Source: Thermoplasmata archaeon
GTDB taxonomy: Archaea > Thermoplasmatota > Thermoplasmata > RBG-16-68-12 > JAGMCJ01
Length of the DNA: 64,000 bases
Assembly (NCBI GenBank): GCA_023136265.1
Contig: JAGLRN010000034.1
Location: 761-64,760, forward strand
Direction: 5' to 3'
A model generated the notes under the pieces. That model was not told the origin of the DNA and made no database searches. It saw only the letters and a program-made list of their open reading frames with translations. Of this stretch, positions 7,661 to 53,353 are shown in pieces. The position numbers and the translations under genes were made by a program. How positions within the stretch are numbered: the stretch's first letter is position 1; the number at the start of each line of letters is the position of its first letter.

Positions 7661-10324
7661 TCAAAGCACGTAGCGTCTAATAAGGCTGATGGCCGCTATT
7701 ATGAGCGGTATCCCGACGGCCATGGGCAACATCACGTCCCTGATCGGCGGCCAGGGCGGCGCGATCATGCCTCCCTCGTTGTCGACGACCACGTCGACGC
7801 TGACCACGTCGGAATACAGCTCGCCATCATAGGCGCGTGCGTGCACCGTATGGTTTCCATTGCCGTACTCGGTCGTGTCCCAGAGATACGCCCACGTGGA
7901 CCAGCTTCCGTCGCCGGATGTGTCCGTGGCGTTCTGCCACTCACCGTCGTCTATCTTCACCTGGACGAGGTCAACCTCGTCCCCCGGGTCAGGATCGCTG
8001 GCGTACCCGTACACGAGGTACTCCCCGTCCACGGTCTCGTTCTCGACCGGATGGACGACTTCCAACTCGGGTGCGCTGTTGAGGTTGTCAACGCCCACCT
8101 CCACGCAGTCAAGCTCGGAGTGGTGCTCTCCGTCATAAGCGCGGGCGCAAACCGTGTGGTTGCCGTTCTCGTACTCGCCAGTGTTCCACTCGTAGGCCCA
8201 GTGCGACCAGCTTCCGTCGCCCGAGACGTCCACGGCATCCTCCCACTCGTCCTCGTCTATCCTGACCTGAACAAGCTCCACGCCCCCGTCGTCCTCAGCG
8301 ATCCCGTTGACCAGAACGATGCCGCTGAGTAGCGCACCATCATTCGGATAGAGGATCTCGACCTCCGGCGGGTCGTTCACATTGTCCGTGCACGCGATCA
8401 CGGTCGCATTGTCGGACCATAGCTCGCCGTCGTAGGACCTTGCGAGGATCGCGTAGCAGTCGTCATCCCACTCAGGGGTGATCCACTCGTACGCCCACTG
8501 GTACCAGCTGTCGTCCGGCGAGACGTCCTTTGCCATGTGCCACTCGCCGTCGCCGATCTTCACCTGGACCTTGGTTATGCGGTCTCCCTCATCGTTGTCC
8601 CACGCCTTCCCGTGGATGAGATAGAATCCGCTCACTTCCTCGTTGTACTCGGGATGAATGATCGAAACCTCGGGCTTGCTGTTATCGTTCTCTATGATGA
8701 CCTCTCGGACGTCCACTTCGGACCAGCCGCACTCGGAACCGGCCTTTGCCTTAACCCAATGCTCCCCGTTCTCGTAGTCACGGGTGTTCCAGTGGAATGC
8801 CCATGTCCTGTAGTCGGGGCCCCAAGACGTATCGGTCGCCTCGTGCCAATCGCCCTCATCGATCCTCACCAGGACGTGAGAGACGCCGTACCCGGGGTTC
8901 GGGTCATTGGCCGTTCCGTGGATGAGCACTATCCCGCTGAGAACGTCCCCGTTCTCGGGATGCACTATCTCGACGGTCGGGGCATCGCAACCTCCGTTCT
9001 CGACTATGACCTTCACCCAGTCGACATCGGACCAGTACTCACCGTCCCAGCCCTTGGCGTGGATGTAGTGGATGCCATCCTCCCACTGGGTGGTGTCCCA
9101 CTCCCATTTCCAGTACTCGAAGCCTTCCTCCATTCCCATCCAGGTAGCCTCGTGCCAGTCGCCGGTCTCGTCGATCTTCACGAGGACCTCGAGCAGCTCG
9201 TTGTCATCAAAACACTTGATCCAGACGTCCACCCAACCGCTGACGATTTCCTCCCAATCGGGCTCGACTATCTCGCACGTCGGCGGGTCGTTGACGTTGT
9301 CCACGTAGACGTGTATGTCCACGTACTCAGAGTAGTCCTCACCGTCGAAGGCTCTGGCGACGACCGCATGCCATCCGTCCTCGAACTCCGTCGTGTCCCA
9401 CTCGTACTCCCATGTGTGCCAATCACCGTCGGGCGAGACATCCGTGGCGTTGAACCACTCCTCTGTCCCGTCGAACGCAACCTGCACGAGCTCGACCTGG
9501 TCGCCCTCATCAGAGTCCCCAGAGTGGCCCCATACGGTCACAGTCCCGCTGACCTCGGACCAGTCAGGCGGGTGCTCGATGTTCACCCAAGGCGGCGTGT
9601 TCCCCGGCTCCTCGTTGATGACGTAGACGTGAATATCAACAATCTCCGAGTGCTCCTCGCCGTCAAAGGCCCTGACCACGAAGTAGTGCCAGCCGTTCTC
9701 GACCTCGGTCGTGTCCCAGATGTACTCCCAGTTCCACCAGTCGCCGTTCTCCGACGTGTCCGTGCAGTTGAGCCAATGCTCCGTGTTGTCGAAAGCGACC
9801 TCTACCAGCTCGACCTGGTCGCCCTCGTCCGGATCGGACGCGTGACCCCAGATTTCGACTATCCCCCAGACCTCGCTGTAGTCCGCCGGATGCTCCACCC
9901 AGACCTCGGGAGCTGTGTTGTCCTCGTTCAGCACTATGATGCCGAGGTCGTACAGCTCCGAGTGGAACTCCCCGTCGAAAGCTCTCGCGACCATGAAGTG
10001 CTCTCCGTTGAGAACGAGGGTGGTGTCCCACTCGTACGACCAGTGATGCCAGTCTCCCGTGACGTCGTTGGCGGTCTGCCAGTCATCTATGCTGTCTATG
10101 GAGATCTCCACTGTCACGACCTCGACGTCGTCCTCGGACAAACCCTCGATGGTCACGACCCCGTCCACAGTCTGACCGGGGTCGGGGTAGTTAATCACCA
10201 CCACTGGCGGCTCGTTCGCCAGACCAGTGGTGAGTGCACCCATCCCTATGACAAGCGCAAAAACCAGTACAATAGCGGTCCTGAGAAATTGCCCATTACT
10301 TCCTCCAAACCCTTTTGAGTCCAT
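7661..10324 (-). CDS. secreted/cell-surface protein with ~9 tandem Ig-like ~93-aa repeats, N-terminal signal peptide and C-terminal TM anchor
   Basis: 887 aa. Signal peptide ...ALTTGLA. Repeats follow the consensus P.V.I.HP.....VSG.V.I.G.A.D.D.GD.V.LVQV.ID.GEW..A.D.S.DGSW..W.Y.WDT.EYENG.H.V.ARA.DGE..S....V.V.VDN. C-terminal hydrophobic segment MLPMAVGIPLIIAAISLIRRYVL. Its stop lies 20 nt upstream of the next surface-protein gene, so the two likely form an operon. Confidence 0.7.
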   Translation of the reverse strand: MDSKGFGGSNGQFLRTAIVLVFALVIGMGALTTGLANEPPVVVINYPDPGQTVDGVVTIEGLSEDDVEVVTVEISIDSIDDWQTANDVTGDWHHWSYEWDTTLVLNGEHFMVARAFDGEFHSELYDLGIIVLNEDNTAPEVWVEHPADYSEVWGIVEIWGHASDPDEGDQVELVEVAFDNTEHWLNCTDTSENGDWWNWEYIWDTTEVENGWHYFVVRAFDGEEHSEIVDIHVYVINEEPGNTPPWVNIEHPPDWSEVSGTVTVWGHSGDSDEGDQVELVQVAFDGTEEWFNATDVSPDGDWHTWEYEWDTTEFEDGWHAVVARAFDGEDYSEYVDIHVYVDNVNDPPTCEIVEPDWEEIVSGWVDVWIKCFDDNELLEVLVKIDETGDWHEATWMGMEEGFEYWKWEWDTTQWEDGIHYIHAKGWDGEYWSDVDWVKVIVENGGCDAPTVEIVHPENGDVLSGIVLIHGTANDPNPGYGVSHVLVRIDEGDWHEATDTSWGPDYRTWAFHWNTRDYENGEHWVKAKAGSECGWSEVDVREVIIENDNSKPEVSIIHPEYNEEVSGFYLIHGKAWDNDEGDRITKVQVKIGDGEWHMAKDVSPDDSWYQWAYEWITPEWDDDCYAILARSYDGELWSDNATVIACTDNVNDPPEVEILYPNDGALLSGIVLVNGIAEDDGGVELVQVRIDEDEWEDAVDVSGDGSWSHWAYEWNTGEYENGNHTVCARAYDGEHHSELDCVEVGVDNLNSAPELEVVHPVENETVDGEYLVYGYASDPDPGDEVDLVQVKIDDGEWQNATDTSGDGSWSTWAYLWDTTEYGNGNHTVHARAYDGELYSDVVSVDVVVDNEGGMIAPPWPPIRDVMLPMAVGIPLIIAAISLIRRYVL
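7774..10213 (-). repeat. intragenic tandem repeats (~279 bp / ~93 aa period, ~9 copies) encoding Ig-like domains
   Basis: Recurrent D.D.GD.V.LVQV...W.Y.WDT.E.ENG.H motifs appear at regular ~93-aa spacing across the 7661..10324 CDS. Confidence 0.5.
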
Positions 10325-14450: not shown

Positions 14451-14554
14451 GTCGGGGTGGCTCAGCCTGGTGGAGCGCCAGACTCATAGGGTTCGTTCGA
14501 AGAGCGCTCCTTGGAAATCTGGAGGTCGCGGGTTCAAAGCCCGCCCCCGACACC
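14451..14554 (+). tRNA. tRNA-Met (anticodon CAT), elongator-type, with ~30-nt intron just 3' of the anticodon
   Basis: Acceptor GTCGGGG/CCCCGAC with discriminator A. D arm GCTC..GAGC. Anticodon stem CCAGA/TCTGG with loop CTCATAG. An insertion GGTTCGTTCGAAGAGCGCTCCTTGGAAA sits between the anticodon loop and the 3' stem strand. T arm GCGGG-TTCAAAG-CCCGC. The gene starts 1 nt after the S3Ae stop codon. No CCA is encoded. Confidence 0.8.
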
Positions 14555-46419: not shown

Positions 46420-47094
46420 TTGCTTAAAGAGTGCAGATCTCATGGTTTCTTCCGCGGGGAAATCTGCCCCAACTGTGGTGACAAATCGAAATTCCTGCTC
46501 GACGACAGGGAGCTGGAGCTGCTGGGAAGAACGATGGCGGGCATCCTGAGACACTTCCCGGAGCGCTACGGCCTGGATATGGACGAACAAGGTTGGGTCG
46601 ACCTCAGGGACTTCGTGACCGCCGTTCAGATCAGGCACAAGAAGTTCAGGTTCCTCAAACCGCATCACGTGCTCGGAATCATCGATACGGACCCCAAGGG
46701 GAGATATCAGTTCCTGGAGGGAAAGATAAGGGCCACATACGCCCACTCGTGTGACGTGGATCTGGATCTGCCGACGGATGACATCCCGGAGATACTGTAC
46801 TTCCCGACGACGGAGGAGGAGTGCAGTATACTCCTTGAGATCGGGCTGAAACCCTCGGACAGGAAGATGGTTCATTTGAGCGGGACTCTTCCCTCGGCGA
46901 TGGAGGCTGGTCGGGTGAGGGTCAATGACCCGGTGATCCTCGAGGTGGATGCGGAGAAGGCCACGGACGAAGGAGTGGAAATAGGCAAGGCCGGAAAGAC
47001 GGTCTACACGACCAAGGACGTCCCGCCAGATTACCTGAGAAGGCTCTCCCCGGAAGAGATCGAAGAAGGGATGGAGCTGGAAGTCAACGAATGA
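46420..47094 (+). CDS. kptA: RNA 2'-phosphotransferase (Tpt1/KptA family) with N-terminal Cys-rich extension
   Basis: LLGRTMAGILRHFPERYGLDMDEQGWVDLRDFV matches the Tpt1 motif L..LRH.P...GL..D..GWV. N-terminal CPNC... Confidence 0.7.
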   Translation: MLKECRSHGFFRGEICPNCGDKSKFLLDDRELELLGRTMAGILRHFPERYGLDMDEQGWVDLRDFVTAVQIRHKKFRFLKPHHVLGIIDTDPKGRYQFLEGKIRATYAHSCDVDLDLPTDDIPEILYFPTTEEECSILLEIGLKPSDRKMVHLSGTLPSAMEAGRVRVNDPVILEVDAEKATDEGVEIGKAGKTVYTTKDVPPDYLRRLSPEEIEEGMELEVNE

Positions 47095-51322: not shown

Positions 51323-51424
51323 TAGCCCCGGGCAGATTCGAACTGCCGTCAAGAGGTCCAGAACCTCTTATGATTTGCCGGCTGAGGCATCGAGCCTGGC
51401 CTTTGACCGCTACACTACGGGGCT
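51323..51424 (-). tRNA. tRNA-Gln (anticodon CTG) with ~33-nt non-canonical intron in the D-loop region
   Basis: Acceptor AGCCCCG/CGGGGCT (A1:U72) with discriminator A. Anticodon arm AGAGG-TTCTGGA-CCTCT. T arm GGCAG-TTCGAAT-CTGCC. Relative to the intronless copy at 53283..53353, ~33 nt (TCAAAGGCCAGGCTCGATGCCTCAGCCGGCAAAT) are inserted after D-loop AGCGG. TATA-like AAATATAC lies ~40 nt upstream. Confidence 0.6.
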
Positions 51425-51512
51425 GCAGTAGGCACTTCTCAAAAGGGCACTCCCCTGCACAAATATACTTCGCAGATGAGAGACCGAGGGAAGCATATGG
51501 CCGTGCGGTCGA

Positions 51513-53198
51513 TCACTTCGCCTGCTGTCGCTTCTGGATCTTGGCCCAAGTATCCCGCAATTGCACGGTCCGGTTGAGGACCAGCTTCTGTTTGGTAGAG
51601 TCAGGGTCGACGCAGAAATAGCCCAGGCGCTCGAACTGGAACAGGTCGAAAGGTTCGAGATTCCCCACGGCGGGCTCCACCTTGCACGAGCGGAGCACCT
51701 CTAACGAGTCGGGGTTCACGAAAGTCTTGAAGTCGGTGTCCTTCTGGCCCAGAGGGTCTGGCACGGTGAACGGTCGGTCGTACAGGCGGACCTCCGCGTC
51801 GATGGCGTGCACAGCTGACACCCAGTGTAGCGTGGACCTCACTTTCCGCCCGTCCGGGGCATCACCACCGCAGGTTTCCGGGTCCACGGTGCACCTCAGC
51901 TCCACGACCTCGCCGTTCTCCTTGACGGGCTCTTTGCACGTGACCAAGTAGGCGTTCCTGAACCGGACCTCCCTGCCCGGAGCCAGTCGGTAGAACTTCT
52001 TCGGCGGATTCTCCATGAAGTCGTCCCGTTCGATGTACGCGACCCGGGAGAACGGCACCTTCCTCGTGCCCGCTTCGGGCTCCTCCGGGTTCCTCATGAG
52101 CTCCATCTCCTCCACCTTGTCCTCGGGATAGTTCTCGAGCACGACCTTGAGCGGGCGAAGGACGCCCATGAACCGAGGAGCGGTCATGTTCAGGTCCTCT
52201 CGGATGCAATGCTCTAGGAACTCGAAATCCACGGTGCTGTGGACCTTGGCAACACCTATGCGCTTGCAGAAGCTCCTTATGGCGGCCGGGGGATAGCCAC
52301 GCCTCCTCATCCCGCTTATTGTGGGGAGCCGGGGGTCGTCCCATCCGTTCACGTATCCGTCCTCCACAAGCTCGAGCAGCTTCCGCTTGCTCATGACCGT
52401 GTGGGTGAGGTTCAGGCGGGCGAACTCGATCTGTTGCGGGTGATACGCGCCAAGCTCGTCTAGGTACCAGTCGTAGAGCGGGCGATGGTCTTCGAACTCA
52501 AGGGTGCAGATTGAGTGCGTGATGCCCTCGATGGAATCCTCAAGGCCGTGCGCCCAGTCGTACGTGGGGTAGATGCACCACTTGTCGCCAGTGTTGTGAT
52601 GGGTCGCGTGCAGTATCCTGTACATGACAGGGTCCCTCATGTTCATGTTCCGGTGGGACATGTCAATCCTGGCCCGGAGCACCTTCTCGCCATCCGCGAA
52701 CTCGCCTGCCTTCATGCGCTCCAGCAAGTCGAGGTTCTCCTCCGCGGATTTGTCTCTGTGGGGGCTCTCCTTGCCCGGGGTGGTGAGCGTGCCTCGATAC
52801 TCGCTGATCTTCTCCGCCGACAGGTCGTCCACGTACGCCTTCCCATCCTTCACAAGCTGCACCGCGTACTCGTACATCTGGTCGAAGTAGTCCGAGGCGA
52901 AGTACAGCCGGTCCCCCCAGTCGAACCCGAGCCACTTGACATCCTCGATGATGGCTTTCACGTACTTGTCCTCCTCCTTCATCGGGTTCGTGTCATCGAA
53001 CCGCAGATTGCACAATCCCCCGTACTCCTCGGCGATGCCGAAGTTGAGGCAGATGGACTTCGCGTGTCCGATGTGCAAGTAGCCGTTGGGTTCAGGCGGG
53101 AAGCGAGTATGCACTCTACCTTCATGCTTGCCGGTTCTGTTGTCCTCGTCGATCATCTGGCGGATGAAGTCGCGAGCGGGAGGCTCACCGGAACCCAT
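51513..53198 (-). CDS. glnS: glutaminyl-tRNA synthetase, bacterial/eukaryotic type
   Basis: HIGH region [46 protein letters not shown]-type VMSKRK, and C-terminal ...[12 protein letters not shown]. Collinear with, and highly similar to, E. coli GlnRS as I recall it. 561 aa. Confidence 0.85.
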
Positions 53199-53282: not shown

Positions 53283-53353
53283 TAGCCCCGACCGGATTTG
53301 AACCGGTGCCAAGAGGTCCAGAGCCTCTTATGCTGCCGCTACACCACGGGGCT
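53283..53353 (-). tRNA. tRNA-Gln (anticodon CTG), intronless
   Basis: Acceptor AGCCCCG/CGGGGCT, D stem GUGU/GCAU, anticodon arm AGAGG-CTCTGGA-CCTCT, T arm ACCGG-TTCAAAT-CCGGT, discriminator A. 71 nt, no encoded CCA. Confidence 0.75.

Follow-up and report, generated by a model that had tools for sequence, protein, structure and literature searches.

The window, a stretch of 64,000 nucleotides from a Thermoplasmata archaeon, very probably carries, to judge from its sequence, a functional archaeal tRNA-Gln(CUG) gene with a 29-nt intron that is removed by protein enzymes and lies between standard positions 21 and 22 of the D-loop. The intron is of a known kind in an unexpected host lineage, the Thermoplasmata. 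The parts of the gene are given below.

51323-51424, minus strand: interrupted tRNA-Gln(CUG) gene, precursor body of 102 nt, delimited from the sequence and recognized only in part by ARAGORN and Rfam
51403-51424, minus strand: exon 1, with the acceptor 5' strand, the D-stem 5' strand and the D-loop AGCGGUCAA to standard position 21
51374-51402, minus strand: intron of 29 nt, AGGCCAGGCUCGAUGCCUCAGCCGGCAAA, between standard positions 21 and 22
51323-51373, minus strand: exon 2, with the D-stem 3' strand UCAU, anticodon arm, variable loop, T arm, acceptor 3' strand and discriminator A73
51359-51361, minus strand: anticodon CUG, called by ARAGORN, also on the spliced form
51461-51473, minus strand: A/T-rich box GCGAAGTATATTT, about 40 nt upstream of the interrupted tRNA-Gln

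The reverse complement of 51323-51424 begins with AGCCCCG and ends with CGGGGCTA, and the coordinates are exact; the full minus-strand sequence is AGCCCCGUAGUGUAGCGGUCAAAGGCCAGGCUCGAUGCCUCAGCCGGCAAAUCAUAAGAGGUUCUGGACCUCUUGACGGCAGUUCGAAUCUGCCCGGGGCUA. The acceptor stem, the anticodon arm (CUG) and the T arm are all complete, and the additional bases lie within the D-loop. The hallmarks of archaeal tRNA-Gln have been reported as a first pair A1:U72, the discriminator A73 and a Gln anticodon YUG (PMC9499178). The gene has A1:U72, A73 and the anticodon CUG, with ends AGCCCCG…CGGGGCU-A. ARAGORN called only 51323-51397, taking intron bases as a false acceptor arm, and the Rfam tRNA model gave 22.7 bits, under its threshold of 29. 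The ARAGORN call was rejected because its acceptor consists of intron bases and the acceptor pairs in the 22.7-bit Rfam match are mismatched. Because the gene is miscalled or missed by standard finders, the tRNA sets of such genomes will look incomplete or wrong. That the extra bases are an artefact of assembly or a chimera, or the scar of an integrated element with duplication of an att site in a tRNA gene, is very improbable and largely refuted. The 102-nt sequence is identical in three independent assemblies and is therefore not an assembly artefact, and orthologues occur in four more contigs.

The intron boundaries were taken from intronless relatives bearing GTGTAGCGGTCAATCAT and from a syntenic orthologue in contig L174. 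A metagenome scan with the T arm and acceptor end as query recovered numerous archaeal tRNA-Gln genes that have this T arm and no intron, and their D arm, GUGU-AGCGGUCAA-UCAU, is also that of the spliced product. In L174, an intronless tRNA-Gln (Rfam 56.7 bits) lies directly downstream of a GlnRS gene 79% identical to that of the window, in the same position as the interrupted gene. These relatives set the exons at …AGCGGUCAA (51403-51424) and UCAU… (51323-51373), with an ambiguity of at most 2 nt from the run of A at both junctions. Excision in silico yields a 73-nt tRNA-Gln(CUG) with a normal cloverleaf (ARAGORN), identical to the L174 tRNA at 70 of 73 positions; of the three positions that differ, two compensate each other as a pair of the anticodon stem. 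An earlier note on this DNA had proposed an intron-bearing tRNA-Gln interrupted in the D-loop and not at the canonical 37/38 site, and this proposal is supported by the match of the excised form to the intronless syntenic orthologue, by conserved exons, with a compensatory change, around an intron that varies but keeps its fold, and by introns with covarying helices at the same site in other archaeal contigs. In a test for mobility, a stretch of 19 nt across intron and exon, GCCTCAGCCGGCAAATCAT, had no second match in the window, and among all fetched loci the 14-nt intron core CCTCAGCCGGCAAA matched only four orthologues. That the intron has no further copy, either in the window or, outside the orthologues, among the fetched loci, argues against an integrated element.

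The same note had also placed an intronless paralogue about 2 kb away, and such a gene was found at a distance of 1.9 kb.

53283-53353, minus strand: intronless tRNA-Gln(CUG) paralogue with a 7-nt D-loop and the T stem ACCGG/CCGGU (Rfam tRNA 62 bits)

The net extra length of the interrupted copy over this paralogue is 31 nt (102 vs 71), and the true insert is 29 nt since the mature D-loop of the interrupted copy is 2 nt longer. The note's figure of about 33 extra nucleotides after the D-loop AGCGG came from alignment to the paralogue with its shorter D-loop and has to be replaced by 29 nt at 21/22, after AGCGGUCAA; an intron start after AGCGG was rejected because the intronless relatives place the boundary after AGCGGUCAA. 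The two copies, described in the note as identical in the acceptor, D-stem and anticodon-arm sequences, do agree in the acceptor stem, in the 5' strand of the D stem and in the anticodon stem, but they differ at positions 9 (A in the interrupted copy, G in the intronless one), 22 (U/G) and 32 (U/C) and in the variable loop. The reported difference between the T arms extends over the whole T stem, which is GGCAG/CUGCC in the interrupted copy.

Orthologues of the interrupted gene were found in four contigs (L001, L081, L082, L083), each directly downstream of a GlnRS gene whose product is about 85-98% identical to that of the window. The insert has the same length in the window gene and in all four. 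In the comparison of the five sequences, 6 of 73 exon columns vary vs 10 of 29 intron columns (Fisher p = 0.002), and the anticodon stem of L083 shows a compensatory change from A-U to G-C. The upstream spacer is barely alignable among the orthologues, the A/T-rich box excepted. A similar box lies at an equal distance in L081, L082, L001, L083 and L174 while the spacer around it diverges, and GCGAAGTATATTT is possibly a BRE/TATA promoter.

The precursor was folded by minimum free energy (MFE), and the predicted splicing elements are as follows.

51405-51407, minus strand: exon strand of central helix H, G19-U20-C20a, with a G18.A mismatch at the fourth place (MFE folds)
51377-51379, minus strand: intron strand of central helix H, GGC
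51402-51404, minus strand: 3-nt bulge AAA; the predicted 5' splice site follows its second base (MFE fold)
51380-51401, minus strand: intron hairpin h' (MFE fold)
51373-51376, minus strand: internal loop A-A-A-U with the predicted 3' splice site, no exon-exon helix abutting H

In the canonical bulge-helix-bulge motif, the intron's 3' end is paired with the exon bases that immediately precede the cut, and each bulge is cut after its second base. The strict form, hBHBh', has two 3-nt bulges on opposite strands with a 4-bp helix between them and flanking helices h and h'. The relaxed form, HBh', has been defined by a single 3-nt bulge that holds a splice site and separates the central helix H from the intron helix h' (PMC6379350, PMC5829648). 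The MFE fold of the precursor, and that of the D-arm region alone, contains a D stem (10-12:53-55), helix H (G18-U19-C20:G46-G47-C48), the 3-nt bulge A21-A23 and the intron hairpin with helices 24-26:43-45 and 28-31:37-40, all in precursor numbering. The D stem, a 3-bp H, a 3-nt bulge and a hairpin follow in this order in the MFE folds of all five orthologues; the third base of the bulge is A or U. When all splice-site pairs of the interrupted tRNA-Gln were enumerated, no strict hBHBh' motif was found at any plausible site. The AAA bulge lies between H and h' in the MFE fold of all five orthologues, and the predicted fold is the relaxed HBh' form and not the strict one. The bulge-helix-bulge motif suggested in the earlier note thus holds in its relaxed form only. 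H is not adjoined by an exon-exon helix, and this leaves the 3' splice site in an internal loop. The modelled central helix has three pairs (G:C, U.G, C:G) and a G.A mismatch vs the 4 bp of the definition; the fourth pair is present at the same-site introns of L100 (G:C) and L116 (G.U). A central helix of only three pairs, one of them G.U, together with the mismatch and the absence of a strict motif in these models, counts against the proposal.

If each strand is cut after the second base past H, the joined ends read exactly GGUCAA|UCAU. When the intron was shuffled, the helix-bulge-helix geometry appeared in only 0.27% of 200,000 trials. The D-arm fold does not exceed those of shuffled sequence in stability (z = -0.15), and the argument therefore rests on geometry and comparison and not on energy. 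A second register with four pairs, C16-U19:G43-G46, was rejected since its product would be a tRNA of 75 nt whose D-loop of 11 nt matches no intronless relative. This register is further disfavoured by the C16A change in L081, which breaks it, and by its competition with the conserved hairpin.

Cleavage by EndA followed by ligation with an RtcB-type ligase is the established route of archaeal tRNA splicing. In the interrupted tRNA-Gln, the intron 3' end (GGC) would pair with D-loop G19-U20-C20a to give a short central helix. The AAA bulge and the intron hairpin that follows it would present the 5' splice site, with the 3' site in the internal loop toward the D stem. EndA would presumably cut after the second base past the central helix on each strand and leave 2',3'-cyclic phosphate and 5'-OH ends, and an RtcB-type ligase would then join …GGUCAA to UCAU…, with the junction …GUAGCGGUCAA + UCAUAAGAGG…. 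Splicing would release G18 and G19 for the contact between D-loop and T-loop, and the product would be a tRNA of 73 nt.

The insert could also be retained as part of an expanded D arm that serves another function, or be processed otherwise, for example by a single cut that leaves stable halves, but this has only a small probability. A proper bulge is predicted at the 5' site only, and the alpha'2 and Methanopyrus kandleri enzymes have been reported to cut HBh' substrates in vitro mostly at the bulge (PMC5829648), which would suit a retained insert or a single cut. The 3' 15 nt of the intron, GCCUCAGCCGGCAAA (51374-51388, minus strand), are invariant across the five orthologues, as a retained insert might lead one to expect, while the 5' strand and the loop of the hairpin vary; the conservation of GCCUCAGCCGGCAAA seems to exceed what pairing alone requires. 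Against retention, the tRNA elbow would be blocked while the intron is present, since G19, U20 and C20a are held in H and G18 lies unpaired opposite A; yet the T loop, the acceptor and the anticodon arm are conserved. Such strong conservation of the rest of a tRNA with a blocked elbow argues for removal of the intron, and the intronless orthologues indicate that the uninterrupted form is the functional state.

The main rival to a spliced, functional gene is a redundant paralogue in decay, a pseudo-tRNA that keeps its insert while the intronless copy does the decoding. This is unlikely, though less so than retention of the insert with a role of its own. The copy with the same anticodon lies 1.9 kb off, so the interrupted one could in principle be dispensable. 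The relaxed motif with its weak central helix, a fold stability no better than that of shuffles, and the expectation of an alpha'2 EndA that handles such introns poorly (PMC5829648) would all suit decay. The exons are nevertheless almost invariant among orthologues whose spacers barely align, with one compensatory change; the length and fold of the intron are kept; and the excised form is a widespread intronless tRNA-Gln. The disrupted cloverleaf that the note had named as a sign of a pseudo-tRNA was not seen: the cloverleaf is intact once the intron is excised, and the exons stay near-invariant while the flanks diverge.

The two tRNA-Gln genes stand on either side of a synthetase gene, and a third tRNA gene lies elsewhere in the window.

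51513-53198, minus strand: bacterial-type glutaminyl-tRNA synthetase (GlnRS) gene between the two tRNA-Gln genes (TIGR00440 glnS)
14451-14552, plus strand: tRNA-Met(CAT) with an intron of about 28 nt at the canonical 37/38 site (Rfam 54 bits; missed by ARAGORN)

The window is archaeal chromosome, with genes for ribosomal protein S3Ae, FEN1, PyrBI, PurP and class I LysRS and the tRNA-Met with a canonical intron. In the tRNA-Met(CAT) intron, the central helix has 3 of 4 pairs and a C.U mismatch. Two of the three tRNA genes in the window bear introns. The GlnRS of 561 aa scores 730 bits with TIGR00440 glnS vs 359 bits with the archaeal GluRS model, the latter below the cut-off of that model. Its homologues include proteins named Thermoplasmata archaeon, and its nearest non-archaeal relatives are bacterial, with about 70% identity. 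Reviews up to 2022 have described GlnRS as lacking in archaea (PMC9499178, PMC5388404). A GlnRS gene flanked by tRNA-Gln is an arrangement common to many related archaeal contigs, and the locus is one of the few where an archaeal GlnRS gene adjoins the tRNA-Gln genes of the same archaeon. Among the 27 closest bacterial GlnRS loci, none has a tRNA-Gln beside the synthetase gene, and co-transfer of tRNA-Gln with GlnRS from bacteria was rejected on this ground. Two tRNA-Gln genes around a horizontally acquired GlnRS do recall integration at a tRNA gene. Against the scar of such an event, both tRNA genes are full length and their T arms differ throughout, so they are not repeats of att half-sites, and the closest bacterial GlnRS loci are without tRNA-Gln. 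In comparison with relatives that have no GlnRS, the stretch with GlnRS and the intronless tRNA-Gln gives the appearance of an insertion between LysRS and a resident tRNA-Gln. The intron-bearing copy is on this synteny probably the native one, the original resident beside LysRS, which speaks against a decaying duplicate. Two more distant archaeal contigs with GlnRS, L084 and L003, carry an intronless pair of tRNA-Gln genes, CUG and UUG, that flank the synthetase gene. The pair in L084 (1358-1428 and 3237-3307) differs at the anticodon only. Both tRNA-Gln of L003 (2888-2961 and 4787-4860) have G1.U72 and G73, a bacterial-type discriminator, vs the archaeal A73.

Introns at the same site were also found in other contigs. 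In a family of soil contigs without GlnRS, represented by L100, the order DUF885, class I LysRS, tRNA-Gln and PurP is syntenic with the window. The three proteins have 47%, 52% and 62% identity, respectively, to those of the window, and close relatives of the LysRS are named Thermoplasmata archaeon. The tRNA-Gln(CUG) of this family has a 28-nt D-loop intron at the same site but with a sequence unrelated to that of the window, and the pairing read from its sequence comprises a central helix GGCC:GGCC free of mismatches, a bulge AAU and a hairpin of 9 bp. A second intron in the same gene is of the strict canonical form at 37/38. The two-intron tRNA-Gln(CUG), with an HBh' D-loop intron and the strict canonical one, was found beside class I LysRS in Thermoplasmata-like contigs that have no GlnRS (L100, L101, L123, L133, L137, L152, L171, L175, L185, L192 and L197). 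The tRNA-Gln of the sister contigs L099, L131 and L161 has the canonical intron only. D-loop introns of unrelated sequence occur in the same register, and with unchanged geometry, in L116, L128 and L147, and in L142 and L148 the register is offset by one base. In an alignment of eight same-site introns, which was trimmed by hand and built around the proposed structure so that the result is descriptive, 81.7% of the cells pair, whereas shuffles give 67% and sliding of the partners 33-51%. Across the same-site introns, four of the five h' pairs next to the bulge change on both sides, and the middle pair of H (U20) is U.G in the window, C:G in the L100 family and U:A in L128. Inserts at further non-canonical sites were seen in archaeal tRNA-Gln genes that share the T arm of the interrupted gene, on metagenome contigs L086, L090, L092, L110, L118, L166, L168, L169, L170 and L173; the sites include places near position 9/10, in the D-loop before GG, or after GGUC, and some genes have up to three inserts. 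In contig L091, a full, bacterial-looking tRNA and a copy of its 3' part (95-119 and 10104-10128) lie about 10 kb apart, the arrangement that integration of an element at a tRNA gene leaves behind.

Among known systems, the D-loop HBh' intron of tRNA-Glu in Methanopyrus kandleri comes closest. The pre-tRNA-Glu(UUC) of this organism has been reported to carry an HBh' intron at 20b/21 in addition to a canonical intron at 37/38 and to be processed in vivo (PMC5829648). Both cases have a euryarchaeal host, D-loop sites within one or two bases of each other and an HBh' motif with a bulge at the 5' site only, and the tRNA-Gln of the L100 family likewise combines a D-loop intron with a canonical one. 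The cases differ in the tRNA (Gln vs Glu), in the Thermoplasmata host and in the M. kandleri enzyme, which is (alpha-beta)2; the M. kandleri splicing is backed by RNA-seq, whereas the window intron is known from DNA sequence. D-loop introns have been reported as common in Crenarchaeota (PMC3241643, PMC4090602), and that of the Aeropyrum pernix pre-tRNA-Thr is cut by an (alpha-beta)2 EndA with a Crenarchaea-specific loop (PMC3241643, PMC6379350). The window intron shares with these the non-canonical D-loop position, the relaxed motif and presumably the same EndA/RtcB chemistry. Unlike the window lineage, the crenarchaeal hosts are rich in introns and have an enzyme of demonstrated broad specificity, while the window lineage falls in a euryarchaeal group reported with alpha'2 enzymes only. 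In ARMAN-2 (Micrarchaeum), relaxed introns are cut by an epsilon2 endonuclease (PMC3239211, PMC12397907). That case is similar in its relaxed motif, its non-canonical site and a lineage outside the TACK group, but has an hBH motif at 59/60 and a known dedicated enzyme, in contrast to HBh' at 21/22 here. The canonical intron of the tRNA-Met(CAT) in the window itself resembles the tRNA-Gln intron in its length of about 28-29 nt, its 3-nt bulges and the pairing of exon bases with the 3' end of the intron. It lies in the anticodon loop and not in the D-loop, and the tRNA-Gln has no exon-exon helix h by the 3' site, so that its second bulge becomes an internal loop.

Non-canonical tRNA introns are a read-out of the co-evolution of tRNA genes and splicing endonucleases, and an HBh' D-loop intron conserved in at least two Thermoplasmata lineages offers a concrete test case. 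Reviews have stated that euryarchaea with alpha4 or alpha'2 enzymes carry canonical bulge-helix-bulge introns only (PMC4090602, PMC4033280), and the euryarchaeal cluster that includes Thermoplasma has been reported with alpha'2 enzymes only (PMC5829648). The Thermoplasma alpha'2 EndA has been described as narrow in specificity (PMC6379350, PMC5829648), and the alpha'2 EndA of A. fulgidus was inefficient in vitro on the M. kandleri HBh' D-loop intron (PMC5829648). A tblastn search of the window and loci L001-L205 for EndA gave no hit; the queries were the catalytic domains of five enzymes, from M. jannaschii, A. fulgidus, M. kandleri, ARMAN-2 and S. tokodaii. Either these archaea have an unnoticed enzyme of broad specificity, or introns of this sort are handled in vivo by an alpha'2 enzyme. 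It is conceivable, though doubtful, that a branch of the Thermoplasmata splices relaxed non-canonical introns routinely, the two-intron tRNA-Gln included, and that the intronless isodecoder came with the bacterial GlnRS inserted beside the native copy. Routine splicing of this kind would imply an EndA with unrecognised broadened specificity or a new architecture, and an isodecoder that came with GlnRS would mean that the cell may run two Gln-tRNA routes with distinct tRNAs.

A homologue of the RNA 2'-phosphotransferase Tpt1/KptA is encoded at 46420-47094 (plus strand), some 4 kb away from the interrupted tRNA-Gln. The fungal enzyme completes tRNA splicing. For the archaeal enzymes, the known link is with 2'-phosphouridine in tRNA (PMC9095486).
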